This document shows, piece by piece, positions 19,910 through 38,021 of a DNA stretch of 64,000 nucleotides. Origin of the DNA: a virus (taxonomy: Duplodnaviria; Caudoviricetes); IMG/VR virus record IMGVR_UViG_3300028591_000070, positions 1 through 64,000 of that record; one strand, written 5' to 3'. How positions within the stretch are numbered: position 1 is the first letter of the stretch; every line of letters begins with the position of its first letter. The translations under genes were made by a program, and so were the position numbers. The notes beneath the pieces were generated by a model. The model ran no database searches. It was given only the letters and a program-made list of their open reading frames with translations, and was not told where the DNA came from.

Positions 19910-20791
19910 ATGTGTAATCAAGAAATAAAAGATGATTTTTTTATAAGATATGACCAGATTGACGATAAAATTTATTTAACTCATTGCTGTAGAATTGAGT
20001 CAAAAGCTTATTCATTAAAAGAATTAGAAGAACGTGGTCTTCAAAGTCTTATAGAAGAAACATCTAGTCTTGAACAGACTGTTAGACCAGGTAGTGAAAG
20101 CTTATGTAAAAAAACTTGTAAATATGCTTTACAACCTAAATCAATATTTATTCAAGCTATAGGACTATGTAATTTTCATTGTTTCCATTGCAGTTCTGGG
20201 CATGGGGATATTAAATGTACTTTACTTACAAAAAATCCTTTAAAAAATAAAAAAGTATTTTTTAATTTAATTGAGCATATTAAAAAATTAAATTATGATA
20301 CATCTATTATAGTAGATGGATCTGGAGAAATTTTTATATATTATAATACTCTATTAGATACTCTAAAGAGTTTAAAAAATACAAATATAAAACAAATTAC
20401 ATTTGAAACTAATGCATCTCTTTTAAATGAAGAAAAAATAAATACACTAAAAAAATTATCCCAAGAAACAAGTGTTGAGTATTTATTTAGAGTATCAATT
20501 GATGGTATTTCTAAAGAAACTCATGAAAAAGTTAGACCAACTGCGAATTATAATCAGTTAATAAAAGTATTTAAAATTCTTTCTGAGACATTTAATACTA
20601 CTATTAATTTTACTATAAAGCGTCCAAATGTAATGGATACACCTAAAGCAGAAGAATATTTTAAAAACTTATTCCCAAAAGCAAATTTATTTATTGAATA
20701 TGATTTTTTTGACAGTGACTTTTTGAAAGAGCAATTAAATGACGAAGAAGGAAAATATAGCTGTTTATTTATTCCTAGACTTCAAAATTAA
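19910..20791 (+). CDS. radical SAM protein with N-terminal Cys cluster
   Basis: CNFHCFHC, DGSGEIF, ETNASL, SIDG; start moved to MCNQ at 19910. Confidence 0.9.
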   Translation: MCNQEIKDDFFIRYDQIDDKIYLTHCCRIESKAYSLKELEERGLQSLIEETSSLEQTVRPGSESLCKKTCKYALQPKSIFIQAIGLCNFHCFHCSSGHGDIKCTLLTKNPLKNKKVFFNLIEHIKKLNYDTSIIVDGSGEIFIYYNTLLDTLKSLKNTNIKQITFETNASLLNEEKINTLKKLSQETSVEYLFRVSIDGISKETHEKVRPTANYNQLIKVFKILSETFNTTINFTIKRPNVMDTPKAEEYFKNLFPKANLFIEYDFFDSDFLKEQLNDEEGKYSCLFIPRLQN

Positions 20792-20805
20792 AACTAATTT
20801 ATTTA

Positions 20806-21660
20806 ATGAAAAATAATAATGGAGAAATTGCTCAAGACTGTGGGTTTTTATCAACTTTAAGTTGTTGTTTATGTAGACCTAATAAGGTTATGCTTAGGCC
20901 ATGTTGTTTTATACCCTTTCCTAAATGTAGTATTTTATCTTTAGATGATTTTTTTAATAAAACGTTTAAAGAATTGAGTGACTTAAGGCCATTCAATAAA
21001 GATGCTATTGACTGTAAATTTAAATGTAATTTAAAGCCAGTTGATACCTTAGAAATAAATTTTTTATACAAATGCAATCTTAAATGCCATCACTGCATAT
21101 CTGAAGCACCTTTAAATAAAGAAGACGTGAATATAACAAAGAATTATATATTAAAAATATTTGATAAGATAATAAATGAGGGTTATCATTTTAATAAAAT
21201 TCATTTAGATGGATCTGGAGAGATATTCATAATATATAAAGACTTAAAAGAATACTTAAAAAAGTTGTCTAAAGATATAGTTAATGAGATAATGTTTGCA
21301 ACTAATGCAACTTTGCTTACGGAAGACATAATTAAGGAATTATGTGAGATAAGTGAATCTACAGGAGTTAAATTTTCATTTGATATATCTTTAGATGGAA
21401 TCACGAAAGAAACATTTGAGGCAACTCGAGTAGGTGCTTCATTTGAAAAAGTTATAAACAATATTAAAAATTTAAGACCTCATTTTGAATATATGCTTTC
21501 ATTTACAGCAAAACGACCAAATATTACAGATAATCCTCATGATGTTATTTCTTTCTTTAAAGAACTAGGAGCAATATATCCAACCATAAGATATGATGCC
21601 TTAGATGAAAATATTAAACAAGAATATATGGAAAAATACCGTAACTTATTATCTTGCTAA
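20806..21660 (+). CDS. radical SAM protein with N-terminal Cys cluster
   Basis: CNLKCHHC, DGSGEIF, ATNATL, SLDGITKETFEATRVG. Confidence 0.9.
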   Translation: MKNNNGEIAQDCGFLSTLSCCLCRPNKVMLRPCCFIPFPKCSILSLDDFFNKTFKELSDLRPFNKDAIDCKFKCNLKPVDTLEINFLYKCNLKCHHCISEAPLNKEDVNITKNYILKIFDKIINEGYHFNKIHLDGSGEIFIIYKDLKEYLKKLSKDIVNEIMFATNATLLTEDIIKELCEISESTGVKFSFDISLDGITKETFEATRVGASFEKVINNIKNLRPHFEYMLSFTAKRPNITDNPHDVISFFKELGAIYPTIRYDALDENIKQEYMEKYRNLLSC

Positions 21661-21688
21661 GTTAATATTTTTTAAATGGAGATTTTTT

Positions 21689-22534
21689 ATGGCTTGTAAA
21701 GAACAGCATGATTTACAAATATTATATTATGACCACGATTTTGCTGAAGAAAAGTTTTCTATACAAATGTGTAGATGTTGTTTTCTTAAGCCCCAAGCTA
21801 TATTGTCATTAAAACAGTATAATGAGATTGATCCTATAGATTATATAGAATCTCATGATAATTCTAGAAAAGAATTTGTCCCAGCATGGGAAGGACATTG
21901 TGACCTAAAATGTAATTTAAACTCAAAAGTTAAAACTGTTTTATTAGGTTTATCTTATGCTTGTAATTTAAATTGCTATCATTGTTTTCATGATATTCAT
22001 AAAGATTTACCTTTATTAAAAGAAACTTATATCAATACCCTTTATAAATTAAAGGGTCATAATTTGGATGAAATCTCTCCAACAACAGCTGGAGAAGAAT
22101 TTATTTATTATAATGAGATTAGAGACTGGTTAAAGACATTAACTCCAAAAGATGTTAAAAAGATTAAGCATCAAACTAATCTCACTCTTTTAAATAGAGA
22201 AAAGATTTTAGAATTAAAACAAATTTCAGATGAAACAAAGGTAAAATATTTCTTTATGCCATCTATTGATGGCATAACTAAAGAGACATATGAGTCAACC
22301 CGTATTGGTGGAACATTTGAGGTTGTTATGCAGAATCTTAAAGACCTAGTTGATATTTTTGAACCACAAAATGTAAAGCCTTCTTTTACAATTAAGAAAA
22401 CTAATGTTTCAGATATCCAAAATATTATTAGCTTCTTTAGAAATAATTTTGGAGTAGAAGTTGACATTGGCGCAGATGTTTATGATGAATTTTGTAGAAC
22501 AGTTCAGCCAGCTGCTTATGAGGAATGTAAATAA
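21689..22534 (+). CDS. radical SAM protein with N-terminal Cys cluster
   Basis: CNLNCYHC, AGEEF, QTNL, SIDGITKETYESTRIG; start moved to MACKEQ at 21689 (GGAG SD). Confidence 0.9.
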   Translation: MACKEQHDLQILYYDHDFAEEKFSIQMCRCCFLKPQAILSLKQYNEIDPIDYIESHDNSRKEFVPAWEGHCDLKCNLNSKVKTVLLGLSYACNLNCYHCFHDIHKDLPLLKETYINTLYKLKGHNLDEISPTTAGEEFIYYNEIRDWLKTLTPKDVKKIKHQTNLTLLNREKILELKQISDETKVKYFFMPSIDGITKETYESTRIGGTFEVVMQNLKDLVDIFEPQNVKPSFTIKKTNVSDIQNIISFFRNNFGVEVDIGADVYDEFCRTVQPAAYEECK

Positions 22535-23946
22535 TGGAAGTATGCCCACAAGATAAAAGAGTTAGCCTTGAAATTAGATTTGATGATGATGGAAAAGTAA
22601 GTTTAGCGAGGTGCTGTTTTTTATATGCTTTTAGTCATCTCACTTTAGAGGAATATGGAAAGATTAAAGATATTATCGATTATGCAGAAAACTCTAAAAT
22701 AAATTATGCAAAAAGTTCAAATATCTGTGTAGCTAAATGTTATCTCGAAAAAAGAATTAAACAAGTAGATGTCGGTATTTCTCATGCATGTAATATGCAT
22801 TGTATGAATTGTTTTTTTAAAGAGCATAAAGACACACCTGAAATGAAGAAGGCCTATTTTGATACTCTTTATAAAATTAAAGGCCATCAATTAGACACTA
22901 TTATGATGAATAATGGTGGAGAAGTTTTTGTTTATTATGATGAAATAATTGAATATCTTAAGTCTCTTACTCCGAATGATACTCGTCAGGTAACTTTTGT
23001 AACAAATTTAGTTTTATTAAATGAGGAAAGATTTAAGGAACTAAAACAAATCAGCGAGGACACAGGAGTTACTTATTTCTTTTTGCCTTCTGTAGATGGT
23101 ATTAAAAAAGAATCATATGAGGCGATTCGTTTAGGTGGTAAGTTTGAAAAAATTACAGAAAATCTTCATTTATTAGCAGATGTTTTTGGTCCTCAACAAG
23201 CAGTAATTCTTTATACTATTAAAAAGCCAAATATAGACGAGACTGAAAATGTCGAAAAATATTTTATGGACACTTTCGGAATTAGATGTTCTATATCATT
23301 TGACGTTTATGATAAAGAGTGCGAAGAAAAATATAATTCCATTTTTAGAAAGAATTATACGAAAGAAGAAAAAGAAGTTTCTTCTTCTAAAGAAGAAAAA
23401 TTTAAGTTTATAGATTCTGGAAAAGCTATTGTGTATCCTCTCTCTATTATTTTAAATAAAAATCCTAAAGAACAGAATGTCAAGAAATTTGCAAATACCA
23501 ATTTTAACATTTATATTTTAACTAAAAGATGTCCAAAATGGATTAAAAAATATATGAATGTTTTTTTTATAAAGACACCTAAAAAACAGGTTTACTTTAA
23601 TATGAATCTTAAAATTTTTACGCCATATATTTTAATGGTTGATGATTTGTCAAAATTAAATATAGAGTGTCCATCAATTCTTGAATACTTTTTATCAAAA
23701 ACAAATCGTGATCTTATAAAGCTTAATAATATTGTTAAACAAGATAAGTCATTTATTACAAAAAGTGGTTCATTTTTTAGTTATAATCTAATTATTAAAA
23801 CCGACTTTTTTAGAAAAAATTTCTATAATCTTAATTTAAGAAAAAGTTTAATAAAAAACTTTAAGAATAAGGATAAAATAGAGGTGGAAATTCCAGAAAA
23901 AGTTGCTTTTTTGTCTGATAAAAAATTATATAAGGAATTTTACTAA
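22534..23946 (+). CDS. radical SAM protein with C-terminal extension (possibly degenerate GT2)
   Basis: CNMHCMNC, GGEVF, SVDG; extension contains YILMVDD. Confidence 0.85.
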   Translation: MEVCPQDKRVSLEIRFDDDGKVSLARCCFLYAFSHLTLEEYGKIKDIIDYAENSKINYAKSSNICVAKCYLEKRIKQVDVGISHACNMHCMNCFFKEHKDTPEMKKAYFDTLYKIKGHQLDTIMMNNGGEVFVYYDEIIEYLKSLTPNDTRQVTFVTNLVLLNEERFKELKQISEDTGVTYFFLPSVDGIKKESYEAIRLGGKFEKITENLHLLADVFGPQQAVILYTIKKPNIDETENVEKYFMDTFGIRCSISFDVYDKECEEKYNSIFRKNYTKEEKEVSSSKEEKFKFIDSGKAIVYPLSIILNKNPKEQNVKKFANTNFNIYILTKRCPKWIKKYMNVFFIKTPKKQVYFNMNLKIFTPYILMVDDLSKLNIECPSILEYFLSKTNRDLIKLNNIVKQDKSFITKSGSFFSYNLIIKTDFFRKNFYNLNLRKSLIKNFKNKDKIEVEIPEKVAFLSDKKLYKEFY

Positions 23947-25769
23947 TGGAATTTTGTTCGCAGTTAGATAGGTCTATGCTAGAACTTTCAGTTTTTTCAA
24001 AAGGAAGCGTTTCATTTTCTAGATGTTCCTACTTGAAAAGTTTAGCATACCTAAAATATGATGAAGTTAAAAATATTGACATTTTTAATTATGATTACAT
24101 TGATAATGCTTGTAAAAAGAGTTCTACATTATGCTCTGTAAAATGTAATCAACTTTCTAATAAATTTGAAAATATTAAAATTGGCATTTCAAGAGCTTGT
24201 AATTTTAACTGTTATCATTGTTTTAATAAAGAACATAAAGACAATTCTCAAGATAAGGAAATCTATTTTTATCTTTTACATGAGGTAAAAGGTCATCATT
24301 TAAATGCCTTAATTTTAGGTCATCAAGGAGAAGTTTTTGTTTATTATGATGAAATATTAAATTATTTAAAAACTTTAACAGTAGCTGATTTTAAACAAAT
24401 CATTTTTCAAACAAATTTAAGTTTATTAAGTGAGTCTCGCATAAAAGAATTAAAAGATGTTTCAGCATCAACAGGCATAGACTATGTATTTTTACCATCT
24501 ATAAATGGTATTACTGAAAAAACTTTTAAGGCTGTTACAAACAGTAATAATTTTAATTTTGTAATAGATAATTTAAAATTATTATTAACTTATTTTGGAC
24601 AAAAAAATACAAAAGTTACTTTCACTATAAAAGAACCAAATATAGATGATTTGCCTAATGTAAATACATTTTTTAAGAACTTAGGAATAGTTTTTTTAAA
24701 TATAAATTATGATATGTATGATACTCGTTGTAAAGATCTTTATTTAGCATTTTTAAATAATGGTCAGTTTAAATGTATTTATGATACTTCATGTTTGGAA
24801 AACACTATTAAAAGTCCTTATTTACTTAAATATAAGAAAAAGTCTGAAACAGATGATGGTGAAAAATTTCTTCTCTTAAAGGAATATAAAAAATCGCATC
24901 AAAATTCATCAATAAATGAAATTGTTACTACACCTAAAGAACAGCCAGTCGAAAAAGTTTTGATCGACCCAAACTATGAAGGCCTTTTCACTATAGGTAT
25001 TACTTGCCATAAAGAGCAAACACTTTCTCCAAGTTTGATTAATCTTATTACATCTAGTAATAATATAAAATTTCTCATATCAAATGATGCCGGAAAAAAT
25101 TATAATAAAGGTTTGAAGACTTTATTAAAAGATAATCCTAATGTTCAATTTATTTATGCTCAACCTGGTATAGAGAATAATAGACAAAACATTTTATCCC
25201 ATACTTTTAGTAAGTATTTATACATTGTAGATTATGATGATGAAATAAAAATTGATGAGTCTAAATTGCTCACATTCTTAGAAAAATGTAATGACGAAGT
25301 TATTATGGTAAATCCTTATGAGGATGGATCACAACCAGATTATATTTATCATAGTGATACTCAATTCTTTGTTGTTACTTGGGCTCAAATTTTTAGTACA
25401 AACTTTATAAGACAGGTTGGTGGATATATTCAAACTTGGAACTTTTATCATGAAGAATTTGGTACTAACGCTAATATTTTGGCAAATATTTATTCTAGAA
25501 ATATTGAATATCATGTGAGTCATATAAATGATAAAAATATTATTTATTACAATCATTTACTTTCTGACAGTATTGGCCATAATAGTATGCTTAAAAGAAG
25601 ATTTAAGGAAATTTATAATTTCGTGAAAAAAATACCAAAGAATGATAATATTACTTATAAAAAAGTTTTTCTAGAAATTTTTAAGGAAAGATTATCATTG
25701 ATGGGCCTTTCTGAAAAAAATTATGATCAGATAAATAGATTGATTATAAAACTTATAAGGAAGTTATAG
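23946..25769 (+). CDS. radical SAM / GT2-family glycosyltransferase fusion
   Basis: CNFNCYHC in the N-terminal half; C-terminal FTIGITC, ISNDA, GIENNRQ, YLYIVDYDD. Confidence 0.8.
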   Translation: MEFCSQLDRSMLELSVFSKGSVSFSRCSYLKSLAYLKYDEVKNIDIFNYDYIDNACKKSSTLCSVKCNQLSNKFENIKIGISRACNFNCYHCFNKEHKDNSQDKEIYFYLLHEVKGHHLNALILGHQGEVFVYYDEILNYLKTLTVADFKQIIFQTNLSLLSESRIKELKDVSASTGIDYVFLPSINGITEKTFKAVTNSNNFNFVIDNLKLLLTYFGQKNTKVTFTIKEPNIDDLPNVNTFFKNLGIVFLNINYDMYDTRCKDLYLAFLNNGQFKCIYDTSCLENTIKSPYLLKYKKKSETDDGEKFLLLKEYKKSHQNSSINEIVTTPKEQPVEKVLIDPNYEGLFTIGITCHKEQTLSPSLINLITSSNNIKFLISNDAGKNYNKGLKTLLKDNPNVQFIYAQPGIENNRQNILSHTFSKYLYIVDYDDEIKIDESKLLTFLEKCNDEVIMVNPYEDGSQPDYIYHSDTQFFVVTWAQIFSTNFIRQVGGYIQTWNFYHEEFGTNANILANIYSRNIEYHVSHINDKNIIYYNHLLSDSIGHNSMLKRRFKEIYNFVKKIPKNDNITYKKVFLEIFKERLSLMGLSEKNYDQINRLIIKLIRKL

Positions 25770-25770
25770 A

Positions 25771-26523
25771 ATGAAGTTTAATGTTGCTATTCCAAAACAT
25801 GCTTTAAATATAATAAAACAAGAATTTCCTCATGATAATATTATCATTTTTGATAAATCTTTATTTGAAGAATATTTTCCAGTTGATGATAATTTTAATT
25901 TCAATGAAGAACAACTTATGCTTTTAAGATTTATTCTTATTAAAAAATATAAGAATTTAATTTTTATCGACTATCCTAATATAACGATAAAGCCAGGTCT
26001 TCGAGAAGAAATAGTACAACTTAGTAAAACCAAAGATCAGTTTATTTATTTTAATGAAAAATATGATTTCTTTTATTCTAAATCATGCTTACCTGAAATA
26101 GAAGATGCTTTATTTAAGGTTGAAAACTTAAAAAGCCTATTGAGTATAAATAACTTTTCTTTATTTATGATCCCAAATACTAGAGAGTATAATTTTGAAA
26201 ATATTCTTTTTTATGGTGGCCTTAAATATTATATTGAGTTTTTCTTAAGATCAGAAAAAATTCTTCTTTTAAATTTAAATAAAACGCCTTTTGATTATAA
26301 AAAATATAGAAAACTGATTGAAGATGGAGTCTTTTTGTTAGGTTATAATGCTCTTCAATTTGAGACTGGAACTCCATATAATTCTAATAATTTATTACTT
26401 ATTGATTTTGATGTTGATAAGTTACCTATAAGATATGACCTTATAAAGATATATAAAAATATTGAAACTGAAAAAATGTATGTTGGATATTTTTCAGAAA
26501 TAACTTGTAAAGGAGTTTTATGA
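25771..26523 (+). CDS. hypothetical protein, weak glycosyltransferase-like pattern
   Basis: LLRFILIKKYKNLIFID resembles a degenerate GT32 motif; operon context. Confidence 0.45.
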   Translation: MKFNVAIPKHALNIIKQEFPHDNIIIFDKSLFEEYFPVDDNFNFNEEQLMLLRFILIKKYKNLIFIDYPNITIKPGLREEIVQLSKTKDQFIYFNEKYDFFYSKSCLPEIEDALFKVENLKSLLSINNFSLFMIPNTREYNFENILFYGGLKYYIEFFLRSEKILLLNLNKTPFDYKKYRKLIEDGVFLLGYNALQFETGTPYNSNNLLLIDFDVDKLPIRYDLIKIYKNIETEKMYVGYFSEITCKGVL

Positions 26524-28031
26524 AAAAAATAATTGAGAAAGAGGAATTTTCTAAAAAACTATCAAAATATCCTGATGAAATTATAAAATTATTTTCTCAT
26601 TTAATGAATGCTAATATTTATTTTTTTATAAATAAGGATAAGCTTGTTGTATTTAATGCTTATGGCACTCCTTCAAAACTTTATTCCACCAAAAGTAAGG
26701 TATTTACAAAAATAATAAAAAATAAAAGGCTAACATTTAATGATTTCAAAGAATTAAAATCTAAATTAGAAGAATTTGAAGTTAATTCATTTACTTTTCT
26801 TAGTAGAAAAGACTTTATTCAGAAACTAGAACCTAAAAATAAAATTACTGAGCTAAAAATTAATATAAGCAATTATTGTACACTAAATTGTGATTATTGC
26901 TTTCAAAAAGAAAAAAATACTAAGAGACTTACTTTTGAACAATGTAAAGAACATATTGATTCTTTTATGGAAACTTACAAATGTCAAAGTTTTTTATTGA
27001 CTTTAGCCATGACCTCAGAGCCATTTTTAGATTTTGAGTTGATAAAACAGATATATAAATATGTTCAAGAAAAGTGTCTTGATAAATTAAAGGCTTCTAC
27101 AACTAAACAAGATATTTATTCTTTTTTAGGAATATCTTCAGATGAAGAATATTTAAAGATATTAAATCAACGAGATTATTATAAGTCTAGTTTTAAAAAC
27201 ATGGATAAAAGATTTATAAGTGATTCTTTAGAAAAAGATTTAATAAATATTGATTTTATATCAGATGAAAATGAAATACAAAGAATAAATAAAGAAGTTA
27301 TTTATACGTCATTATCAGCTTCTAAAGATTTATATTATTTATGTTTGTGTACAAATGGAACAATTCGACCTTCTAAAGAAGACTTAGCATTTATTAAAAA
27401 GCTTTATTCATATGGACCTTTAAACTTAAGTTTTGATGGTGATTTTAAAGGAAATTCTCATAGAAAATATCCAAATGGAAAGCCATCCTATAATGATGTT
27501 TTAGAGAATATTCATTTTTTCCAAAAAAATGGCATAAAGTTAAAAATAAATTGTACTATTACTGAGGATAATAATGATTTTTTAAAACTAATAAAGTTTT
27601 TTCATAAAAATAATATTACAGATTTTAAGTTTAATCTCAAAAAAGGCGTATATTCAAAAAATCTTCTTAAAAATATAAGGAAATTCTATAAAGCTTATTA
27701 TACCCATAAGATTGATTCTCTTTATGGTTTTGAAAAATTTGGAAGTAATATTCATAAAGATTTTATTTATCTTATAAACTGTGAAGATTGTAATAGAAAA
27801 TGTATTGGCTTTGATAATAAAGAATATTATTGCGATTATTTCATCGGCAATAACTTAAATCTTCCTAAATCTGGAGTAAATGTTTTACGAAGAAATAAAT
27901 GTACAAATTGTCCTTTTGCTTTAATCTGTGGTGGAACTTGTCAAGCAATCACAAGGTCAACAAATATAGATGAAAAATCATGTGAAGTAAGACAAGAGAT
28001 ATTTAAACAGATTGTTTATTTCACAAGTTAA
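26520..28031 (+). CDS. radical SAM/SPASM maturase-like protein
   Basis: CTLNCDYC, SEPFL, CTNGT, SFDG, HRKYPNGKPSY; SPASM-like CTNCPFALICGGTC...C. Confidence 0.9.
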   Translation: MKKIIEKEEFSKKLSKYPDEIIKLFSHLMNANIYFFINKDKLVVFNAYGTPSKLYSTKSKVFTKIIKNKRLTFNDFKELKSKLEEFEVNSFTFLSRKDFIQKLEPKNKITELKINISNYCTLNCDYCFQKEKNTKRLTFEQCKEHIDSFMETYKCQSFLLTLAMTSEPFLDFELIKQIYKYVQEKCLDKLKASTTKQDIYSFLGISSDEEYLKILNQRDYYKSSFKNMDKRFISDSLEKDLINIDFISDENEIQRINKEVIYTSLSASKDLYYLCLCTNGTIRPSKEDLAFIKKLYSYGPLNLSFDGDFKGNSHRKYPNGKPSYNDVLENIHFFQKNGIKLKINCTITEDNNDFLKLIKFFHKNNITDFKFNLKKGVYSKNLLKNIRKFYKAYYTHKIDSLYGFEKFGSNIHKDFIYLINCEDCNRKCIGFDNKEYYCDYFIGNNLNLPKSGVNVLRRNKCTNCPFALICGGTCQAITRSTNIDEKSCEVRQEIFKQIVYFTS

Positions 28032-28067: not shown

Positions 28068-28976
28068 ATGAAACTTATTTTAGGAACAGTTGGTTCGCCT
28101 AATACGAAGTACGAAGATTTAGAAAAAATTTTCGATACAGTGTATGATCATTATGGAAAAGAAACTATTATTGATACTGGCCATGGTTATATGAAAAAAG
28201 ATGATGAAAATAATGCTGAAACATATATTGGCCGTTGGATTAAGGAAAGAGGTCTTACTCCAGAAAAAGATATTAAAGTTATCGATAAAGTTGGACTTTG
28301 GTATAATGAGAATAAAGATGGAGAGAGAAAAATTCAAGATCCATCTGAAATTTTAGATGAAATTTATCAGCGTCTTGGATTTATGCCTGAAACAATTTTA
28401 ATTCATGCTTTGAAAGATTCACAGTCAATCTCAGATGAACGCTATTTGGAGTTAGCTCAGCTTATTGAAGACACAGCTGACATTAAAGAATCTGGCTTTA
28501 GTGCTCACATGGAATTTGAGCCTCTTATTATGTGGCTTCAGAAACTTAAAGAATTTTCAAAACAGAAATATGCTATGCTTCCTTATTCAGTATTAAGTGA
28601 TATTCCTAATATTTGGCATGATGAACAAGGAAAACATTTTAGCCAGAATAAAAATATTTATGGCATAGATGTTTGGCCAAATTGTACAAAAGAAGGTTTT
28701 AAGGTTGCCAAAGATTTAGGCTATGATACAATTATTATGATGCCTCGCGAACAAGGAAAGATTACACAAATCAGCTATGCTCCTCTTTGGCAGAATTGGT
28801 GTTTTAGATATGCTTGTATGAATGAACATGCGGATTATATAGCAGAGTCATCTTTAAATCCAGTGCATATTAAAGAAGATATTGCCATTGCAGAAGGCGA
28901 ATGGTATCATCAAACAAATCGTGAAGGTTTAAGAGACAAAATTATTGCTGAGTCAGAAGAACTTGGAAATTGGTAA
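28068..28976 (+). CDS. aldo/keto reductase family protein
   Basis: LILGT, IDTGHGY, ETYIG, ILIH, GFSAH. Confidence 0.75.
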   Translation: MKLILGTVGSPNTKYEDLEKIFDTVYDHYGKETIIDTGHGYMKKDDENNAETYIGRWIKERGLTPEKDIKVIDKVGLWYNENKDGERKIQDPSEILDEIYQRLGFMPETILIHALKDSQSISDERYLELAQLIEDTADIKESGFSAHMEFEPLIMWLQKLKEFSKQKYAMLPYSVLSDIPNIWHDEQGKHFSQNKNIYGIDVWPNCTKEGFKVAKDLGYDTIIMMPREQGKITQISYAPLWQNWCFRYACMNEHADYIAESSLNPVHIKEDIAIAEGEWYHQTNREGLRDKIIAESEELGNW

Positions 28977-28988
28977 GGAGAATATAGA

Positions 28989-30212
28989 ATGGCAGAAATT
29001 AGTATTATAGCATATGGTGATGGCGTTTGTTTAAATGACCACGATAGAAATCCTTACGGAAATGAAAAATATGGTCTTTGTGCTTATTGTTCAGGCTCTA
29101 ATAACTGGAATAAATCAAATGCGGTTGCTTCTCAGATTAAAGAATGGGCTGATTGGGATAAATTGGAAAAATCTCTAGAAGAAAATCCTCTTATTCAAAA
29201 AGCGATTAAAAATAAAGAAATTATTACTTGGAATCTTTGGGGTGCAAACCCTGATACTCCTATTCCAATTGCAGATGGATTAGATAGTCCTTTAGAAAGA
29301 TCTCAAGCAATCATAGATTTCTGTGAAGATTTTTCTGGTAGGCATGACATTTTTAGACAGTATTTCGTTTCTACTAATGGATTTTGGCTTACAGATAAAA
29401 GAGTTCAAGATTTTTATACAAAAAATCCTAAAATGCATCTTCAATTATCTTATGATGGTCTTGGTAATTATGTAAGACAAGGTCCATTTGACCCACTTTG
29501 GGATAAAGAAACCGGTCCTATTTTAGCTGATTTTGCAAAAAAAGGCATTTTTGACTTAATAAATATTACAATGACTCGTCAAAATAATTCTTTATTGGCA
29601 AACGTTGCCCTCATAAATAAATGGAGATCTGATAATGGGCTTATGAACCTTGAACATTTTAGTGTTAAGACAAATCATATTAATGATAGTCCATATTGTG
29701 ATCATTGGAATTTTAAAGGTAAATCATTAAATACTTACATTAATGAACTTGAGCGTTTGTTTATTATGACAAAATATGGAAATATTTCTTCCAACCCATA
29801 TTGGAAACCATATACTGATTATTTTATGAATCAACTGGTTAGATGGGACCCTTATTCTGGAGATAACTCATGTGGAATGTATTCTATTTTTGTTAATGGG
29901 CAAGATCCAAATGACCCTATTAAACATAGGTCTCAGAATTATAACTGGTCTATTAATACTTTAGGAGAATATGTTGTTTGTCAATTGATTGATAAACCAA
30001 CTGACGTGCCAAATCCACATTTAACTCGTCCAGCTATGTGTGAGAAATGTGAATATGGTTGGATGAATGAATGCCATCCTTGTCCAGACAATGTTAATAA
30101 TCCAGACTGTCAGTATAAAAAAGAATATGCTCGTTTGATGCTTCGTATGAAACTTATGAATGACATTATTCAAGTAGGTGGGCAGCATCAATGTAATTGC
30201 TCAAATAAATAA
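28989..30212 (+). CDS. radical SAM/SPASM protein with atypical Cx16Cx2C motif
   Basis: C-LNDHDRNPYGNEKYGL-CAYC, LWGANP, STNG, QLSYDG; C-terminal CG...CQL...CEKC..ECHPC..DC. Confidence 0.8.
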   Translation: MAEISIIAYGDGVCLNDHDRNPYGNEKYGLCAYCSGSNNWNKSNAVASQIKEWADWDKLEKSLEENPLIQKAIKNKEIITWNLWGANPDTPIPIADGLDSPLERSQAIIDFCEDFSGRHDIFRQYFVSTNGFWLTDKRVQDFYTKNPKMHLQLSYDGLGNYVRQGPFDPLWDKETGPILADFAKKGIFDLINITMTRQNNSLLANVALINKWRSDNGLMNLEHFSVKTNHINDSPYCDHWNFKGKSLNTYINELERLFIMTKYGNISSNPYWKPYTDYFMNQLVRWDPYSGDNSCGMYSIFVNGQDPNDPIKHRSQNYNWSINTLGEYVVCQLIDKPTDVPNPHLTRPAMCEKCEYGWMNECHPCPDNVNNPDCQYKKEYARLMLRMKLMNDIIQVGGQHQCNCSNK

Positions 30213-30225
30213 TACTAATTAAATT

Positions 30226-31995
30226 ATGGAAATGCATAAATCATCCTTTGAAGTTCCTTCAAAGGATTATAAAAAACAAATTACTAATGGAATATATTCT
30301 CTAAAAGTTGAGGCTGGTTCTCTTAATATTGTTGATGCTCTTAAAAGCTTTATTGATTATGATAAAGTAGCCATTGTTACTAGGCATAGTATAAGAGGTG
30401 AAGATTATTCTGCTTCAGGACCATTAACTGATTTAGGAAAAACTGCAGCAGAAAATATTGGTAAGCAATTAAAAGCTGAATTTGGTGAAAGGTCTATTGC
30501 ATTATATTCAACTGATACTGTAAGAACTAGAGATACAGCATCTCTTATAAATAAAGGTTGGAACGATGCTGAGACTTCCGAGATTGATACCTCAAAAGAT
30601 ATTATTAATGGAGGTTATTTTGAAGTTTCTGGTTCATGGCCAGAAATTACTGAAAGTGTACAAACTCCAGAATTTAAAAATAAAGTTGAAACATGGAAAT
30701 CTAATTTTATAAGTGAAATGCCTGATGGCTTATCATGGTGGGTAAGCCATGACTCATTATTAGTTCCACTTGTTTATAATATTTCTGATTTTAATCCTGA
30801 GAAATATAAACAGCTTTATAAGTTTGAATATTTACCATGGGTTTCACCTTTATCTGGAATTATTATTGCCATTAAAAACAATGATATTCAGATTAAGGTT
30901 ATTAGCTGTTTAGAAACAGGTTTTATTAGTAGTAATGACTATAATCATGACTATACAGAAGATGTTGAAAATCCAGAAGAATTACGCAAAAAAAATTTAG
31001 TAGCAACAACATTTACTCATCCAAAAGTTGATAATACTTATAAGTCAAAACCAGATTTATCTTATATATTTGATCAATCTGATACAAATAGTAATCCACT
31101 TTATTGTGATTCCACTTATGCAGGTTGTGGTCAATGTGTATCTTGCCAGAATTGCGATAATGGATGTCAAACATCTTGTCAAGGGTGTGATGGATGTAAC
31201 TCTTGTCAAACATGCTTCTCATGTCAAGCAAAGTGTCAGACTGAAGGATATTCTTGGACAGTATATAAAGAAAAAATTACTGAATGTACATCATGTGTAT
31301 CTTGTCGAGATTGTGTAGGTGGTTATACTAAAAAATACGTCACTGATTGTAATCCTTGTAATTCATGCTATGGTCAACAACAAGTTAAAACTTGGTCTCA
31401 GTGTTCTGGATGTCAATGGGGATGTACAGGCTGTAACTTATGCAATGGCTGTAATGATGGTTGTACTTCTAATGGCCAAGGCTGTTCTTCTTGCCATAAT
31501 AGTTGTACAGGTTGTAGAGCTTGTTATGGCTGTCGTTCTGGATGTACAGCAGGAACAAGTCATACCCAGTCTTGTTCATATTATTATTCTGGTGGATGTA
31601 GTCCTTGTAATTCTTGTGATCAATGTACTTCTTGTAATTCTTGTACTGGAAATTGTTGGGGATGTGATGGGTGTACAACTTGTACAGCATGTCAAAGTTG
31701 TGCTAGTTGTCAAACTTGTACAGCTTCTTGTCAGTCTACCTGCTATAATGGTTGTATAAGTTGTAATTCTCAGACAACTGTAACAGAATGGAGATGTGAT
31801 GGTTGTACTCAAGAACAACCTGTTACAAGATGTGTTCCAGGATGCGAAACTACTTGTTATGCCGGATGTACAAATACATATGATAATAGATGGAAAAGAT
31901 ATAATTGTTCAGATAAATGTATGACTTGTGTGGGTATCGATGCTTATGCATGTACTTCTTGTTATCAAAAAAATTATGATGTGGAGTATAAATAA
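30226..31995 (+). CDS. histidine phosphatase domain fused to a long CxxC/CxxxC-repeat region
   Basis: TRHS...LTDLG...STDTVRTRDTA...VSHD; ~64 Cys (hand count) in the C-terminal ~290 aa. Confidence 0.8.
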   Translation: MEMHKSSFEVPSKDYKKQITNGIYSLKVEAGSLNIVDALKSFIDYDKVAIVTRHSIRGEDYSASGPLTDLGKTAAENIGKQLKAEFGERSIALYSTDTVRTRDTASLINKGWNDAETSEIDTSKDIINGGYFEVSGSWPEITESVQTPEFKNKVETWKSNFISEMPDGLSWWVSHDSLLVPLVYNISDFNPEKYKQLYKFEYLPWVSPLSGIIIAIKNNDIQIKVISCLETGFISSNDYNHDYTEDVENPEELRKKNLVATTFTHPKVDNTYKSKPDLSYIFDQSDTNSNPLYCDSTYAGCGQCVSCQNCDNGCQTSCQGCDGCNSCQTCFSCQAKCQTEGYSWTVYKEKITECTSCVSCRDCVGGYTKKYVTDCNPCNSCYGQQQVKTWSQCSGCQWGCTGCNLCNGCNDGCTSNGQGCSSCHNSCTGCRACYGCRSGCTAGTSHTQSCSYYYSGGCSPCNSCDQCTSCNSCTGNCWGCDGCTTCTACQSCASCQTCTASCQSTCYNGCISCNSQTTVTEWRCDGCTQEQPVTRCVPGCETTCYAGCTNTYDNRWKRYNCSDKCMTCVGIDAYACTSCYQKNYDVEYK

Positions 31996-33564
31996 ATGGA
32001 ATTACTAAAAGATGAACAAATAACCTTAAATATAGATGGTTTCGTTATTTCACAGAACCTTCATAATAAAGCCACAGCAACAAGTTTATTTGGTATTACT
32101 AATAAAGATAACTTAAATATAGGCCATGACGATAGAACATGGGTTTTAGAGAAAGATATTATTTGTGATACTTGTAATAGATGTGTAGGATGCCAAACTT
32201 GCGTAAGCTGTAATAACTGTGTTGATACAGTAGGATGTAATAATAATTGTCAAGGATGCACTGGAAGTTGTACAGGCTGTGCTAGTGGCTGCTATGATAC
32301 TTGCTTTGGTGATTGTTATACCTGTCAAGATTGCCAAGCAGGATGTACTTCTTGTAATGCTTGTACAGCAGGATGCGATGGTGGATGTCAGACAGAATGT
32401 TATGTCTGTGTAAGTTGCGATGGCTGTGTCGGCTGTAATGGTGATTGCGTTGGTTGTTTTAATGGATGTCAGGAATCTTGTCAAAACTGTACTGGCTGCG
32501 CTAGCTGTACTGCTTGTGTATCTTGTCAAACAGGCTGTCAAACAGGTTGCCATGATAATTGTCTAGGAGGATGTACTACTAGTACTACTGGTGCTTGTAC
32601 CACAATATGTCAAACACACTGTCAAACTTGTACAGGATGTGATAATAGCTGCCATGGTGGATGTACATTATGTAATGGCTGTACAAGTGGATGTACTACT
32701 AGCTGCCATATAGGTTGTCAAACAGGTTGTACAACTGCATGCCAGATGTGTACGGGTGATTCTTGCGCTAATTGCAATAGTTGTAATAGCTGTACAAGCT
32801 ATAATGGTGGTTGTCCTTCTGGATATACTATATGTAGTCCTTGTGTAGGAACATATAGCTGTGGTAGTAGCCAAGGTTCAGCATGTTCACCATGTTATGG
32901 ATCTAATCACGGTGGTCAAGATACCCCAGAAGATCCAGGGGAAGAACCAAAACAAAAAGAAGTAGACATTAATTGCTTAAACAGAGCCACAGGTGGAACT
33001 GAAGCAGGACTAAATACAGGTTGTCAAACAGCACCATATAATGCAGCAGATATAAAAGAGCCACCAGAGTATAAAGGCCCACCAGCTTGGAATCAATTAT
33101 CAGATCACGATAAAGTAGATAAATATAAAGAGCTTGGATATAAAGTAAATATTAAAGATACACCTGAAGATATTACTGGTATGGAGCTTAAAGCGCTTGA
33201 AGACCTATTCCCAGGAGCAGACCATGTTCAAACTGAATGGGACGAAGAAAGTGGAACCTTTACGGAATATGTGTATGATGAGGAAGGTAATTTATTAGGA
33301 ACTGCTAAATCAAAAGATCGAGGTGAATCATTTGAAGCTGAGTCGGTGCCTAATAAAAAAGGTAATAAAAAGAAAACTACAGGCATTAAAGTAAACAAAG
33401 GTGCAAAACCCCCTACAACTGATATGTCTAAAAAGCACACTAAAGAATATGATAGTGAAGGTAAACCAACAGGAAAAGAAACAGCAGCTGATGGATCAAC
33501 AGAAGTTGAAAACCCAGAAACAGGAGAAAAAGTAAATACTGGTCCTCAACCAGCTGGTTGTTAA
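31996..33564 (+). CDS. giant CxxC/CxxxC-repeat protein (putative radical SAM modification target)
   Basis: ~55 aa Cys-free N-terminus, ~65 Cys (hand count) in ~245 aa, then a charged low-complexity tail ending in Cys. Confidence 0.8.
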   Translation: MELLKDEQITLNIDGFVISQNLHNKATATSLFGITNKDNLNIGHDDRTWVLEKDIICDTCNRCVGCQTCVSCNNCVDTVGCNNNCQGCTGSCTGCASGCYDTCFGDCYTCQDCQAGCTSCNACTAGCDGGCQTECYVCVSCDGCVGCNGDCVGCFNGCQESCQNCTGCASCTACVSCQTGCQTGCHDNCLGGCTTSTTGACTTICQTHCQTCTGCDNSCHGGCTLCNGCTSGCTTSCHIGCQTGCTTACQMCTGDSCANCNSCNSCTSYNGGCPSGYTICSPCVGTYSCGSSQGSACSPCYGSNHGGQDTPEDPGEEPKQKEVDINCLNRATGGTEAGLNTGCQTAPYNAADIKEPPEYKGPPAWNQLSDHDKVDKYKELGYKVNIKDTPEDITGMELKALEDLFPGADHVQTEWDEESGTFTEYVYDEEGNLLGTAKSKDRGESFEAESVPNKKGNKKKTTGIKVNKGAKPPTTDMSKKHTKEYDSEGKPTGKETAADGSTEVENPETGEKVNTGPQPAGC

Positions 33565-33567
33565 AAT

Positions 33568-33599
33568 AAAAAAGAGAGGTCTTATGACCTCTCTTTTTT
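33568..33599. terminator. bidirectional intrinsic terminator
   Basis: AAAAAAGAGAGGTC-TTAT-GACCTCTCTTTTTT between convergent genes. Confidence 0.9.
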
Positions 33600-33600
33600 A

Positions 33601-34701
33601 TTATTTTTCCATAAACTTATTACGTTCTATTTTAACATCCAAATCAGATGTTACCAATTCATAATCTTCAGTAATTCTCCAAATATTTTTCATAAAATCT
33701 ATTACATTATTTCCACCAAGACCTCCAACCCAAACATCTGGAAGATGGCCAATACCTTCTGAGAAATTTGAGTCAGGAATAAAATCTCTAGTAGAGAGTA
33801 CCAAACTGAATTTATCTTTTTCAAAAACTATTTGTTTTGGGTCAATTCCTTCTAATAAACCATTTGTATTACTACCAATATAAATAGTTCTTTTATCATC
33901 TTTAAGAGCATAAATAAGACGTTCAGCAGCAGAACCAGTATTGTCAATAAGAACTATAATTTTCTTATATTTTGATTTTTTTATCTTTTCAGCAAAAGCT
34001 AATGCTGGATTTACTTTACCACCAGGGGCATTTAAGAGGTCGATTATCAAATATTCTTTTTTTGGAAGAGATAACTTATCAAATGTATCATTTTTAATAT
34101 GACTATTAAGTTTAATTACATAGGATTTTTTTGTTTCTAATATTGAAATTCCTTTACTAATTTCTTCCATTCCTACAAAATTTAATTTTGCGCCGGAATT
34201 ACCATTCATCCAATCATCACCTTTCCAATTAAACCAACTCCACTCACCAACTCTCCAATCTTTTTCACCATTACTTGGATAATAAAACATAGTTTCATTT
34301 TCAACATAACCTTTTTTCAACAATTCATCTTTTGTGCCATATTCATTTGAAAACTTTACCCATTTGCGATAACTTGGAGACTCAAGCCATTTTCCATTCT
34401 CATCTTTAATACTCAAACCATGATGATTATCAAGTGGCAACCAACCTTTCTCATCATTTGGTCTAAAAAATGACTCAATATATTCAAACATCTCACCATC
34501 AATTTTCATATTATCCAACTGATGAACATCAAAACCTCTCTCCACCATCTCAGGATAAAAAACATAATCAACCAAAGCTAACTCAATCTTTTTAATATCC
34601 TCATCAATATCATCTCTAATTACAGGATGAAGGAGGTCTTCTCCACAAACATTAAAAAGTGCGAAAATTACAAAAAATAAACTAATAATAAATTTCTTCA
34701 T
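33601..34701 (-). CDS. secreted S41-family (tail-specific) peptidase-like protein
   Basis: Signal peptide MKKFIISLFFVIFALF; LIIDL..APGG, TGSAAE, IGSNTNG, EGIGHLPD; start moved to 34701 (GAGG SD). Confidence 0.75.
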   Translation of the reverse strand: MKKFIISLFFVIFALFNVCGEDLLHPVIRDDIDEDIKKIELALVDYVFYPEMVERGFDVHQLDNMKIDGEMFEYIESFFRPNDEKGWLPLDNHHGLSIKDENGKWLESPSYRKWVKFSNEYGTKDELLKKGYVENETMFYYPSNGEKDWRVGEWSWFNWKGDDWMNGNSGAKLNFVGMEEISKGISILETKKSYVIKLNSHIKNDTFDKLSLPKKEYLIIDLLNAPGGKVNPALAFAEKIKKSKYKKIIVLIDNTGSAAERLIYALKDDKRTIYIGSNTNGLLEGIDPKQIVFEKDKFSLVLSTRDFIPDSNFSEGIGHLPDVWVGGLGGNNVIDFMKNIWRITEDYELVTSDLDVKIERNKFMEK

Positions 34702-34720
34702 ATCTATTACCTCTATATAG

Positions 34721-34749: not shown

Positions 34750-34767
34750 AAAATACTAAATTTTAAT

Positions 34768-35721
34768 ATGGAAACAAAATACTTAGATGTTCATATTATT
34801 TATAGTGATAAAGATAAAAAATATTTACCGAAATTGTTACAACAATACAAAAAATTTAAAATCGAAAATTCTATATATGATTGGGAATTATCATTAAAAG
34901 TTCATAATAATTCTGGAATTAACAATATAGGTCAATTTCAAAGAAGATTAGAAATTATAAAAGATGCGCCTGAAGATCATTATATTTGGTTTATAGATGG
35001 AGATGACGAGATTATTGGAAACGCAAACCTTAAAAATTGCCCAGAAAATGATATAGACATTTATATTTTTGCTTATAAAGGATTTGCTCAGCTTCCATCA
35101 AAAAAAGTAATTGTTGTTGATGAAAAATATTTATTTAAAGATACGTTCTTTAATAAAGAAAAAGGAGATTATTTTTTTGAAGGACCTAGAGGTATGTCTA
35201 ACCTAACACATATAGGTGGTGGGGCATTATGGAATAAATGGATAAAAGTAAAATGTTGGCATAATTTATTTAATTATCTTAAAAATATGAATTATGAAAA
35301 TATTAGACCTAATAGCTCTGAAGATTGTTTTTATAGTTTATATGCCTTAAATAATGCAAACTATATTTTTTATTCAATAAATCCTATATATCAATATAGA
35401 AATGATAGGTCCATAGTATTTAATCCCACAAATAATATTATTAAGTATCAATCATTTTTAAATTTTAGAAAAAACCATAAAGAAGTTACTGAAGCTATAC
35501 GAGGATTAAATATTCCTTATATTGAAGATTTCTTTATAGCTGATAGATGTTGTCACTTAGAAAAAGCTTTATTGTGTGTCGAGATTAAAAAAGCTTTACA
35601 AGATGTTGTAGATGAATTTGGTAAAGAAACAATAATATATGTTTTAGAAAATTATGATGCTAGAGTAAATTCTTGTCACCCTATGGTAAAACATCTTGCT
35701 TATAAATATTTGACTAAATAG
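34768..35721 (+). CDS. GT2-family glycosyltransferase
   Basis: GQFQRR, YIWFIDGDDEI, LWNKWIK, SEDCFY. Confidence 0.85.
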   Translation: METKYLDVHIIYSDKDKKYLPKLLQQYKKFKIENSIYDWELSLKVHNNSGINNIGQFQRRLEIIKDAPEDHYIWFIDGDDEIIGNANLKNCPENDIDIYIFAYKGFAQLPSKKVIVVDEKYLFKDTFFNKEKGDYFFEGPRGMSNLTHIGGGALWNKWIKVKCWHNLFNYLKNMNYENIRPNSSEDCFYSLYALNNANYIFYSINPIYQYRNDRSIVFNPTNNIIKYQSFLNFRKNHKEVTEAIRGLNIPYIEDFFIADRCCHLEKALLCVEIKKALQDVVDEFGKETIIYVLENYDARVNSCHPMVKHLAYKYLTK

Positions 35722-35724
35722 ATT

Positions 35725-36189
35725 ATGGAAATACAGAAGCAATTTTTACGAAAAGGTAGAGATTATAATAGATCTGGAGCTCAGTTAAGACCTAAACTGA
35801 TTGGTTTATATGAATTAAAAGATAATCTACCTAATATGCTTGCTTCCAATGTGGTTTCACATCAAGATGAAGGCATTACAACTGTTTTTCATTTTGTAGT
35901 AGATGGCAAAGGAAATGTAATTCAAGCTGTTCCTTTAAATGAAAAAGCAAGATTTATGCCAACCTACTATATGAATGAATTGGTTTCTATATTAGTGGTT
36001 CCATCTAATGTAGATGGAAGTTTATCAGATAAACAGTATGAAAGTTTAGTCGAGCTTGTAAAATATATTAAAGCTACTTGTGGATTAAAGGACATTAGAG
36101 AATTAAATATGAGATGTTTTACAGATCCTGATAAATTTAATGAGTTTATATTAGAAACTGAAAATATTAATACAAATGTTCCAAAATAA
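35725..36189 (+). CDS. Amidase_2/PGRP-like protein, apparently catalytically degenerate
   Basis: HFVVDGKGNVIQAVPLNEKA, SDKQYESLVELV; expected Zn-ligand His residues appear absent. Confidence 0.6.
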   Translation: MEIQKQFLRKGRDYNRSGAQLRPKLIGLYELKDNLPNMLASNVVSHQDEGITTVFHFVVDGKGNVIQAVPLNEKARFMPTYYMNELVSILVVPSNVDGSLSDKQYESLVELVKYIKATCGLKDIRELNMRCFTDPDKFNEFILETENINTNVPK

Positions 36190-37270
36190 ATACGACTTTT
36201 TAATAGTAGGCTCAGGTTTATATGGGCTTACTTGGAATAGGCTAGCACAAGAAAAAGGTAAAAGTTGTCTTATCATAGAAAAAAGAGATAGAATTGGCGG
36301 AAATATAATTACAGAAAACTGGAAAGGAATTCCCATTCATAAATATGGCCCACACATTTTCCATACAAATAACAAAGAAGTTTGGGATTTTGTAAATAAA
36401 AATTGTAAGATTGAATCATATATAAATCAACCTGTTGCTTGGAATAAAAAACTTTATAATTTACCATTTAATATGAATACATTTTATCAAGTCTTTGATA
36501 CAAAAAACATTGATAAAATAAAAGAAATAATTCAAAGAGATATAAAAGAGTCGGGAATTAAAAATCCGAAAAATCTTGAAGAACAAGCTATTTCGATGGT
36601 TGGAACTACCATTTATGAGATACTTATAAAGCATTATACTGAAAAACAATGGGGAAGACCTTGTTCTGAATTACCAGCAGGTATAATTAAAAGATTACCT
36701 CTTAGATGGACTTTTGATAATAATTATTTCAATGCAGATTACCAAGGAATGCCACATTATAATGAATTGGTAGAGAATCTTTCAAAGGGTGCTGATATTT
36801 TAGTTAATACAGATTATTTTTTAGATAAAGAAAAGTTTAATTCATTAGCTGACCGAATAATTTATACTGGACCAATTGATGAGTTTTTTAATTATAAATA
36901 TGGAAAATTAGATTGGCGAACTGTAAGATGGGAAAATGAAGAGAAACATTGCGATAATTTTCTTGGTGCAGCTATAATGAATTTTACTGGGCCTGAAGAA
37001 AAATATACAAGAATTATTGAACATAGACATTTTTATAAAGACCAAAGTAAATTTCCAAAAGAAACCTTAATTTCATATGAATATTCAGAAGAATATGAAG
37101 CTGGAAAAGAAAAATTTTATCCAATAAATGATGAAAAAAATAATAAAATTTTAAGTCTATATCAGAAAGAAATAAGTGATAAATTTATTTTTGGTGGAAG
37201 ATTGGCAGAGTACAAGTATTATGATATGGATAAAGTTATTGAAAAATGTTTTAATGACTTTAAGGCATAA
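36176..37270 (+). CDS. glf: UDP-galactopyranose mutase
   Basis: IVGSGLYG, RIGGN, HKYGPHIFHT, YTEKQWG, NNYF, YTGPID, TRIIEH, GRLAEYKYYDMD. Confidence 0.97.
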   Translation: MFQNKYDFLIVGSGLYGLTWNRLAQEKGKSCLIIEKRDRIGGNIITENWKGIPIHKYGPHIFHTNNKEVWDFVNKNCKIESYINQPVAWNKKLYNLPFNMNTFYQVFDTKNIDKIKEIIQRDIKESGIKNPKNLEEQAISMVGTTIYEILIKHYTEKQWGRPCSELPAGIIKRLPLRWTFDNNYFNADYQGMPHYNELVENLSKGADILVNTDYFLDKEKFNSLADRIIYTGPIDEFFNYKYGKLDWRTVRWENEEKHCDNFLGAAIMNFTGPEEKYTRIIEHRHFYKDQSKFPKETLISYEYSEEYEAGKEKFYPINDEKNNKILSLYQKEISDKFIFGGRLAEYKYYDMDKVIEKCFNDFKA

Positions 37271-38021
37271 TTTTAAAAGTATCGAATTTTAATAAATCAT
37301 CATATGTTATAACTTTTTCAATGTGGCTATCTCCTCTATCCATCTCATAATAAGATTTAGCCAATAAAAGGTCATCATAATGTTTCGAGTCTTTATTGAA
37401 CCATCTATCAAATTCATCAAGTAAGTAAGCAGCACCATGCATGTAATCTTTTTCATAATATTCACAAAAATTTAATAATTTATTATAGATAAATGAATTT
37501 TTAAAAAATTCTTCTGATTGGTCATAATCTGAATATATTGCTTGATAACTATATTCTGGATGTGAAATAATTTGTCTACTAAAAAAGCCTTCTCTCAAAT
37601 ATACTTTAAGTGTATCTAAAGACCTTTTTAGAAAAAACTTTGTTGAAGAGTCTAGACTTATAAAAACTGGTGTCCATGTACAAAAATTAATATTACCAGC
37701 ATTCCAAGTTATATAATATGTTGGGATAGTTTTTTTGGGATTTAAATTTAAATCATAAAAAATAGTGTCTGACTCAATGAACCATCCTCCAAGGTGGAGC
37801 ATAAGAAATAATTTATAATATTCATATGTACAGGAATAGTGAATTTTATTTAAAATTTTTTTAATATCAGGCTCAATAGTTTTTTGACAAGCCTTTATTA
37901 AAGCTGAATTTTCATTATAAACATGAATTTCATGACCTAACTCAAGATTTCGATAAACACAAAAACGATTACGATAAGATTTTTTTAGGCAATCATTAAA
38001 ATCAATAACATTAAGGACCAT
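37260..38021 (-). CDS. GT32/DXD-type glycosyltransferase-like protein
   Basis: YEYYKLFLMLHLGGWFIESD resembles the sDxxRxxxLxxxGGxYxDxD motif. Confidence 0.55.
   Translation of the reverse strand: MVLNVIDFNDCLKKSYRNRFCVYRNLELGHEIHVYNENSALIKACQKTIEPDIKKILNKIHYSCTYEYYKLFLMLHLGGWFIESDTIFYDLNLNPKKTIPTYYITWNAGNINFCTWTPVFISLDSSTKFFLKRSLDTLKVYLREGFFSRQIISHPEYSYQAIYSDYDQSEEFFKNSFIYNKLLNFCEYYEKDYMHGAAYLLDEFDRWFNKDSKHYDDLLLAKSYYEMDRGDSHIEKVITYDDLLKFDTFKIMP

Follow-up and report, generated by a model that had tools for sequence, protein, structure and literature searches.

A radical-SAM island behind the capsid gene

Directly behind the major capsid gene of a 386-kb phage (Caudoviricetes; virus record IMGVR_UViG_3300028591_000070) lies an island of radical S-adenosylmethionine (SAM) enzymes, giant Cys-repeat proteins and glycosyltransferases (GTs). 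We analyzed the first 64 kb of this 385,934-bp record (the window) and name genes by their start coordinates in it; the record has a terminal repeat and a GC content of 31.7%. The original prediction had read the island as one late-expressed system that crosslinks and glycosylates two virion proteins. The explanation developed here, to which as a whole we give an even chance of being right, is that the island genes are real but form two co-located cassettes, not a single pathway. Module A spans 28068–33564, and Module B comprises 19910–26523 plus a GT2 gene (34768) and glf. The features that bear on Module A are:

17987–19837: Gp23 major capsid gene
19862–19887, plus strand: terminator-like hairpin directly after the Gp23 major capsid gene
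26520–28031, plus strand: radical SAM/SPASM enzyme, 503 aa, with an N-terminal extension of ~105 aa and a canonical Cx2Cx5Cx3C tail; by its position, the extension may be like a recognition element (RRE) for RiPPs (peptides that are made on the ribosome and modified after translation)
28068–28976, plus strand: aldo-keto reductase (by homology), accessory of Module A
28989–30212, plus strand: radical SAM enzyme, putative core maturase of Module A, with Cx16Cx2C, seven conserved SPASM-type Cys and no RRE
30226–31995, plus strand: Cys-repeat protein 1, 589 aa, 65 Cys (63 in residues 295–585), ACTAA at −12
31996–33564, plus strand: Cys-repeat protein 2, with 68 Cys in 522 aa, 65 of them within residues 57–303
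33565–33602, plus strand: 17-bp terminator hairpin, end of Module A

As predicted, seven radical-SAM genes follow the capsid terminator. Six score above the PF04055 cut-off (Pfam), and the seventh, 28989, has no library match and was assigned by the fold of its model. The expectation that these are SPASM enzymes held for two of them: the C-terminal auxiliary-cluster Cys by which ranthipeptide and sactipeptide maturases are recognized are present in 26520 and 28989 and absent from the five short enzymes.

The 28989 enzyme is paired with Cys-repeat proteins

The 28989 protein matched nothing in Pfam, NCBIfam or PHROG. Its structural model (predicted local distance difference test, pLDDT, 85) is closest in fold to the anaerobic sulfatase-maturating enzyme (anSME, the highest match), CteB, ChlB and SuiB, with 5WHY and 5WGG among the top entries. 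Across 66 representative relatives the cluster Cys and the seven tail Cys are conserved. The Cx16Cx2C loop is limited to this jumbo lineage, with Cx3Cx2C in distant homologs, and the tail has a non-canonical spacing (Cx2Cx7Cx2Cx8C). The sequence begins at the barrel, leaving no place for an RRE.

As single-protein queries, neither 28989 nor 26520 returned matches among viral contigs, and alignments were needed; no homolog of 28989 was found among annotated phage records. Scans with the 28989 family recovered 85 loci in 49 clusters (90% identity), and co-occurrence was scored in the 25 clusters flanked by at least 4 kb on both sides. All 25 have a Cys-repeat open reading frame (ORF) nearby, 24 of them within 3 kb. 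For comparison, only 2 of the 536 ORFs in the phage genome have at least 14 Cys per 100 aa, and these are 30226 and 31996. The co-occurrence expected of related genomes is thus borne out, and 28989 is shown to be a radical-SAM enzyme with a SPASM-type tail that is genetically tied to giant Cys-repeat proteins.

The enzyme was found across dozens of livestock-gut phages, nearly always beside Cys-repeat proteins, and the pairing spans a deep tree that includes 35–40-kb phages and jumbo phages. At locus L015, in one of the 35–40-kb phages, the order is terminase, reductase, enzyme, small ORF, Cys protein and tail-fibre genes. In two 35–40-kb phages (L009 and L044) the module lies beside tail genes, and in jumbo phages it is found behind a tail-fibre gene (L012) or in the baseplate region (L008). 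In L098, a distant locus with two enzymes, the Cys repeat and an Mtd_N adhesin domain (E = 3e-14) form one fusion protein. The co-occurrence and the tail and terminase neighbours together strongly support 28989 as a maturase of Cys-repeat proteins that are probably part of the virion. This much of the original prediction stands for 28989 and possibly, in this lineage only, for 26520; it does not extend to the five short enzymes, which belong to a 15-copy family that tracks with GTs.

Variants of the module were also observed. One relative has two pairs of Cys-repeat genes (L041 13751–21530), and in another a second paralog of the 28989 family is present as a C-terminal fragment, ~3.4 kb upstream of the first (L005 2–271). 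Tail-type proteins with scattered Cys adjoin the module at L009 9535–11640 (10% Cys), L051 13302–16280 and L028 16378–19392. Loci L098–L117, which include several human-gut contigs, are prophage-like and encode two radical SAMs and two Cys-repeat proteins, which at L098 carry Mtd_N domains.

The assignment of 28068 as an aldo-keto reductase was confirmed. PF00248 matches seven of eight aligned homologs, to which the window protein is linked at E values of 1e-12 to 1e-22, and, of the catalytic Asp/Tyr/Lys/His, the D/K/H positions are maintained. The reductase joins the enzyme in three separate parts of the tree and accompanies it in 13 of 44 clusters; it is therefore a recurrent but optional helper. 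Among close relatives it is 81–95% identical, and 28989 is 83–90% identical.

The most RiPP-maturase-like gene of the island is 26520. Its best models are PapB (62.7 bits, cut-off 340) and TIGR04115 (58.8 bits, cut-off 350), both below cut-off. It was found only in close jumbo relatives and diverges fast (38–49% identity in most), and it may be a second, lineage-specific maturase.

Cys-repeat proteins lack a common leader

Both Cys-repeat proteins are as described in the original prediction (65 and 68 Cys), with Cys-Cys gaps of 3 or 4 in 81–85% of cases. Gly, Ser and Thr dominate positions −1 and +2 around the Cys, and positions +1 and +2 are rich in Thr, Ser, Gly, Gln and Asn. In 30226 an N-terminal His-phosphatase-like domain is optional and comes and goes among close relatives; in 31996 the 55-aa N-terminus is conserved and the low-complexity tail is variable. 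The Cys proteins of close relatives are 33–86% identical, range from 138 to ~590 aa and vary in number. Across all loci the partners are ~140 to 985 aa long and contain as many as 146 Cys, and small natural partners include one of 138 aa with 20 Cys (L005) and one of 164 aa (L008). We considered multiheme cytochromes and rejected them, as CxxCH is rare in the partner proteins (37, against 1671 CxxC).

No common leader was found in the partners, whose segments before the Cys core split into 23 BLAST groups. The proposed RiPP-like design of leader and core, scaled up to long substrates, is consequently not supported. Given these divergent N-termini and a maturase without an RRE, 28989 is likely to recognize the repeat itself. 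A search of the ESM Atlas with 31996 found nothing, and a complex prediction for 28989 with residues 1–110 of 31996 gave no answer (score 0.00) and is not used as evidence.

A separate array of short radical-SAM enzymes and glycosyltransferases

The remaining radical-SAM genes of the island are short paralogs that lie among GT-like genes. These features, with the other genes between them, are:

19910–20791, plus strand: short radical SAM paralog 1, 293 aa, C..CC..CxxxC then CxxxCxxC, no SPASM, ACTAA at −12
20806–21660, plus strand: short radical SAM paralog 2, 284 aa, ACTAA at −13
21689–22534, plus strand: short radical SAM paralog 3, 281 aa, ATG at 21689 behind GGAG, GTTAATAT at −28; heads the 21689–28031 run
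22534–23946, plus strand: 470-aa short radical SAM whose GT-like tail is eroded and only weakly like that of 23946 (hhalign E = 0.001)
23946–25769, plus strand: 607-aa fusion of a short radical SAM with a GT2 domain (PF00535 slightly below cut-off, E = 1e-4)
25771–26523, plus strand: degenerate GT8/GT32-like protein (hhalign 91% to phage GT8-like proteins)
33601–34701, minus strand: S41 peptidase with a signal-peptide-like start and neither phage motif upstream; in place in close relatives
34768–35721, plus strand: GT2-like glycosyltransferase (hhalign 98%), ACTAA at −13
35725–36189, plus strand: Amidase_2-like protein (E = 5e-6), ACTAA at −12
36176–37270, plus strand: UDP-galactopyranose mutase (glf), at the same site in L043, absent in L005 and L042
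37260–38021, minus strand: GT32-like by motif only, ACTAA at −12, with a paralog at genome 204392
7186–8013, minus strand: short radical SAM paralog outside the island, single copy

The predicted glycosylation genes are thus present in part: the GT2-like gene and glf were recovered, and hhalign did not confirm 37260 as GT32-like. Glycosylation of the Cys-repeat proteins, which had been proposed alongside, found no support in this analysis.

The short family has 15 paralogs: five in the island, the one at 7186 and nine at genome 238731–246372, where they form an alternating-strand array (L001 2732–10373). All share an N-terminal C..CC..CxxxC domain (a beta-hairpin and a helix) ahead of a generic radical-SAM barrel. 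The best score against NF033640 (N_Twi_rSAM) was 42.4 bits, with only the barrel covered, and the cut-off is 170. A twitch test of the N-terminal domain gave no PF13186 match and an hhalign probability of 0.6%. An alignment of the short paralogs returned one weak match among viral sequences, and the ESM Atlas searched with 21689 returned only unnamed viral radical-SAM clusters. Relatives carry ~4–9 short-enzyme genes at the island site, with GT-like and GH5 genes inserted among them; the GH5 (cellulase-family) insertions are at L041 8303–9202 and L042 3147–4172.

At 70% identity, the short enzymes occur alongside Module A in only 1 of 29 clusters, namely this lineage. As they are fused to or interleaved with GTs and are absent from unrelated Module A loci, they probably edit sugars on a phage-built glycan, independently of Module A. 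Possible targets are the virion, the host surface and DNA.

The neighbouring S41 peptidase is probably unrelated. A role as leader peptidase was considered and ruled out by its signal-peptide-like start, its opposite strand and its absence from distant loci (it was not found beside the module in L008–L033). The amidase-like 35725 is probably related to lysis.

Two upstream motifs divide the island

The ACTAA motif is rarer in the genome than expected by chance (150 seen, 218 expected) and is strongly positional, occurring at −12 to −16 in 73 of 441 genes where ~2.4 are expected. A Shine-Dalgarno (SD) sequence is present in only 4 of these 73 genes and in 23 of the 31 genes with ACTAA 20–45 nt upstream. 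Because SD sequences are rare where ACTAA is close and common where it is farther away, ACTAA can be read as a promoter element that would yield near-leaderless transcripts. It heads 8 of the 12 largest ORFs and one weak terminase match, which makes a late or structural class plausible. The motif precedes all seven island genes for which it had been claimed, and the portal, sheath and neck labels of the genes said to share it are unconfirmed.

A second motif, GTTAATAT, is 22-fold enriched and lies upstream of GroEL, ClpP, both helicases and the 21689–28031 run, where it takes the place of ACTAA. The reductase gene 28068 carries both (ACTAA at −30 and GTTAATAT at −41). Since the 21689–28031 run follows the second motif, the island is not a single regulatory unit, as far as its upstream motifs indicate, and not uniformly "late"; the predicted late expression would fit only part of it. 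Genome-wide, SD-less genes with either motif class (ACTAATT or GTTAATAT) 12–17 nt before the ATG, for example at window 38053, 39776, 49042 and 21689, suggest widespread near-leaderless translation. A sigma-70 promoter scan gave hits at chance level.

Host and genomic setting

The phage encodes a flagellin of the spirochaete FlaB type at genome 330942–331637 (L125), with ~50 N-terminal residues apparently missing. Its best matches are flagellins of 281–286 aa, one chain of which is named FlaB1. We take these to be spirochaete FlaB proteins, so the host is probably a Treponema. Relatives of the phage include assemblies from pig gut, and a sheep-gut RNA run contained contigs identical to both Cys genes, although contigs cannot show timing, level or transcription.

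Other observations concern the wider genome. A SAM-synthetase-like gene (genome 220305–221120; L126) would fit the heavy SAM demand of ~20 radical-SAM genes. By inspection, the cluster at genome 184976–190617 (L002) resembles a DNA-base glycosylation pathway, with GT-like, isomerase, oxidoreductase, thymidylate-synthase-like and kinase genes. At genome 74481–80394 one radical SAM is followed by seven paralogs with a common N-terminal FETNSSS motif. The gene at window 16089–17267 has ACTAA at −13; its product of 392 aa is internally duplicated and matches no family.

Proposed mechanism and alternatives

We propose that 28989 would cleave SAM and abstract hydrogen from one of the small residues that flank each Cys (Thr, Ser, Gly, Gln or Asn), closing many Cys-to-carbon thioether staples along the repeat, and that it would recognize this repeat and not a leader. 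The substrates would be late-made virion appendages, anchored to the particle by their varied N-termini. The hypervariable stapled repeat would give a redox-stable, protease-resistant fibre in the anoxic gut, where disulfides do not form. The reductase may help by supplying electrons or by reducing a carbonyl by-product, and 26520 may act as a second, lineage-specific maturase. Module B enzymes would edit sugars on a phage glycan, on the virion or on the host surface.

Confidence differs between the parts. That 28989 modifies the Cys-repeat proteins is highly likely, and that the product is a virion appendage is reasonably probable. Thioether stapling, drawn by analogy with CteB, which links Cys to a Thr two residues on, and QhpD, a precedent for thioether stapling in a protein (PMC8326336), is slightly favored. 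We advance only tentatively, with more doubt than belief, the fullest form of the idea: a leader-independent phage radical-SAM family that would place dozens to >100 thioether staples per protein as an anoxic substitute for disulfides in a virion appendage, with a separate 15-copy array editing the virion glycan.

Several observations weigh against this account. One locus (L046) has no Cys-repeat ORF within 3 kb to the left (the shorter flank) or 6 kb to the right of the enzyme. A chromosomal 28989 homolog of Treponema zioleckii kT3 (L045 2036–3729; NZ_JPUF01000091.1) is paired outside visible phage context; its partner is a 219-aa Cys/Asp-repeat protein among toxin-antitoxin-like genes, so enzyme and Cys repeat are paired beyond phages too. 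No tail family was matched by the Cys proteins of the window itself, which sit behind the capsid gene and not in a tail operon. Few Asp or Glu acceptors lie beside the Cys, so chemistry of the PapB/QhpD type fits poorly. Most ACTAA genes lack a confirmed structural identity, and the fold matches of the short enzymes do not single out sugar enzymes, which leaves sugar editing to be argued from gene neighbourhood.

The chemistry could differ from stapling. An anSME-like oxidation of Cys C-beta to thioaldehyde or formylglycine, with the reductase finishing the product by reduction, epimerization or desulfuration, would agree with anSME being the top fold match and likewise RRE-less, and with the reductase joining the enzyme three separate times in the tree; its presence in so few clusters speaks against such a finishing role. 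Alternatively, the repeats might chiefly bind metal or Fe-S clusters and be lightly edited, as ferredoxin-like CxxCxxCxxxC spacings arise in them, but the spacing varies freely between strains, unlike that of Fe-S folds, and the rarity of CxxCH excludes a multiheme protein. We consider such non-thioether outcomes unlikely. It is also rather improbable that the modified proteins are not virion parts at all but intracellular or lysis-released products, for example a RiPP-like effector, a factor for superinfection exclusion or a metal sink. The lack of tail-family matches in the window, the adjacent S41 protease, the chromosomal Treponema pair and the differing sites of the module in related jumbo phages (L012 and L058) would suit that possibility. 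The terminase and tail positions in small phages, the Mtd_N fusion, the lack of a common leader, the absence of S41 genes beside the distant modules L008–L033 and the lack of a transporter among the annotated island genes argue for a virion part.

A single pathway, in which all seven radical SAMs and the GTs crosslink and glycosylate the two Cys-repeat proteins, is very unlikely. The island gene order is maintained in five close relatives, many of the genes carry ACTAA, and the Ser, Thr and Cys that abound in the cores could accept sugars. However, the short enzymes accompany Module A only in this lineage, 10 of the 15 paralogs are encoded outside the island, and the 21689–28031 run has a different upstream motif. 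Moreover, in L005, where the enzyme is 77% identical, neither the short enzymes nor 26520 occur within 3.7 kb upstream. For Module B, it remains doubtful that host surface glycans or phage DNA, and not a virion glycan, are modified. It has been suggested that GT clusters of jumbo phages diversify the surface polysaccharide of the host (PMC7824862), and some of the array comes after the motif that also precedes replication and chaperone genes; on the other hand, most short paralogs carry ACTAA, and the DNA-base-glycosylation-like cluster at genome 185–190 kb is separate.

If the two-module account with stapled appendages is true, phage morphogenesis gains a new step, uncharacterized Cys-repeat maturase systems acquire a biological role, and 28989 is an enzyme that may be able to staple very long substrates in the absence of a leader. 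The natural mini-substrates and the homologous pair in the T. zioleckii strain, which is cultured, make a direct test feasible.

Comparison with known systems

Module A can be compared with the CXXX-repeat system (TIGR04114/TIGR04115), in which a radical SAM/SPASM enzyme likewise lies beside regularly spaced Cys with small flanking residues. The TIGR04115 cut-off of 350 bits is not reached by 26520, and 28989 does not match the model. The TIGR04114 target model matched neither whole proteins nor fragments nor the genome, a search whose sensitivity may be lowered by composition filters. The phage targets are also 140 to more than 780 aa long, have mixed spacings of 3 and 4, contain up to 146 Cys and lie in structural regions.

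The SCIFF (six Cys within 45 residues) and ranthipeptide maturases (CteB, Tte1186, PapB; also QhpD) are of the same fold class as 28989 (5WHY, 5WGG), and CQTSCQ-type units in the phage cores resemble the SCIFF core. In contrast to these systems, 28989 has no RRE, its partners have no common leader and few Asp or Glu acceptors, and the substrates are ten times longer and probably structural. The anSME is the closest to 28989 in fold and is likewise an RRE-less SPASM enzyme, one that acts on a protein Cys; 28989 differs in having no sulfatase partner, dozens of putative target Cys and a non-canonical tail spacing.

For Module B, the short paralogs resemble N_Twi_rSAM (NF033640) in having an N-terminal Cys-bearing domain ahead of the barrel, but score at most 42.4 bits with the match confined to the barrel. 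The twitch sugar enzymes BtrN, NeoN and BlsE offer a further comparison. Glycosylation of mycobacteriophage virions (Freeman 2023, cited in PMC11256854) is similar in that phage GTs could decorate the particle; no radical-SAM editing is mentioned there.

Our search of the open-access literature turned up no report in which a radical-SAM enzyme matures a protein of a virus particle. A huge virus from an anoxic setting has 15 radical SAM genes and Cys-rich tail spikes, to which no mechanism or function was assigned (PMC9723712). In combination, Module A resembles the CXXX-repeat and ranthipeptide systems in its working, yet it does not pass their hidden Markov model (HMM) and leader tests. The analysis adds an unclassified enzyme family with a counted co-occurrence, partners without a leader, a reductase that is optional, a cultured bacterium with a homolog and the division of the island into two modules.

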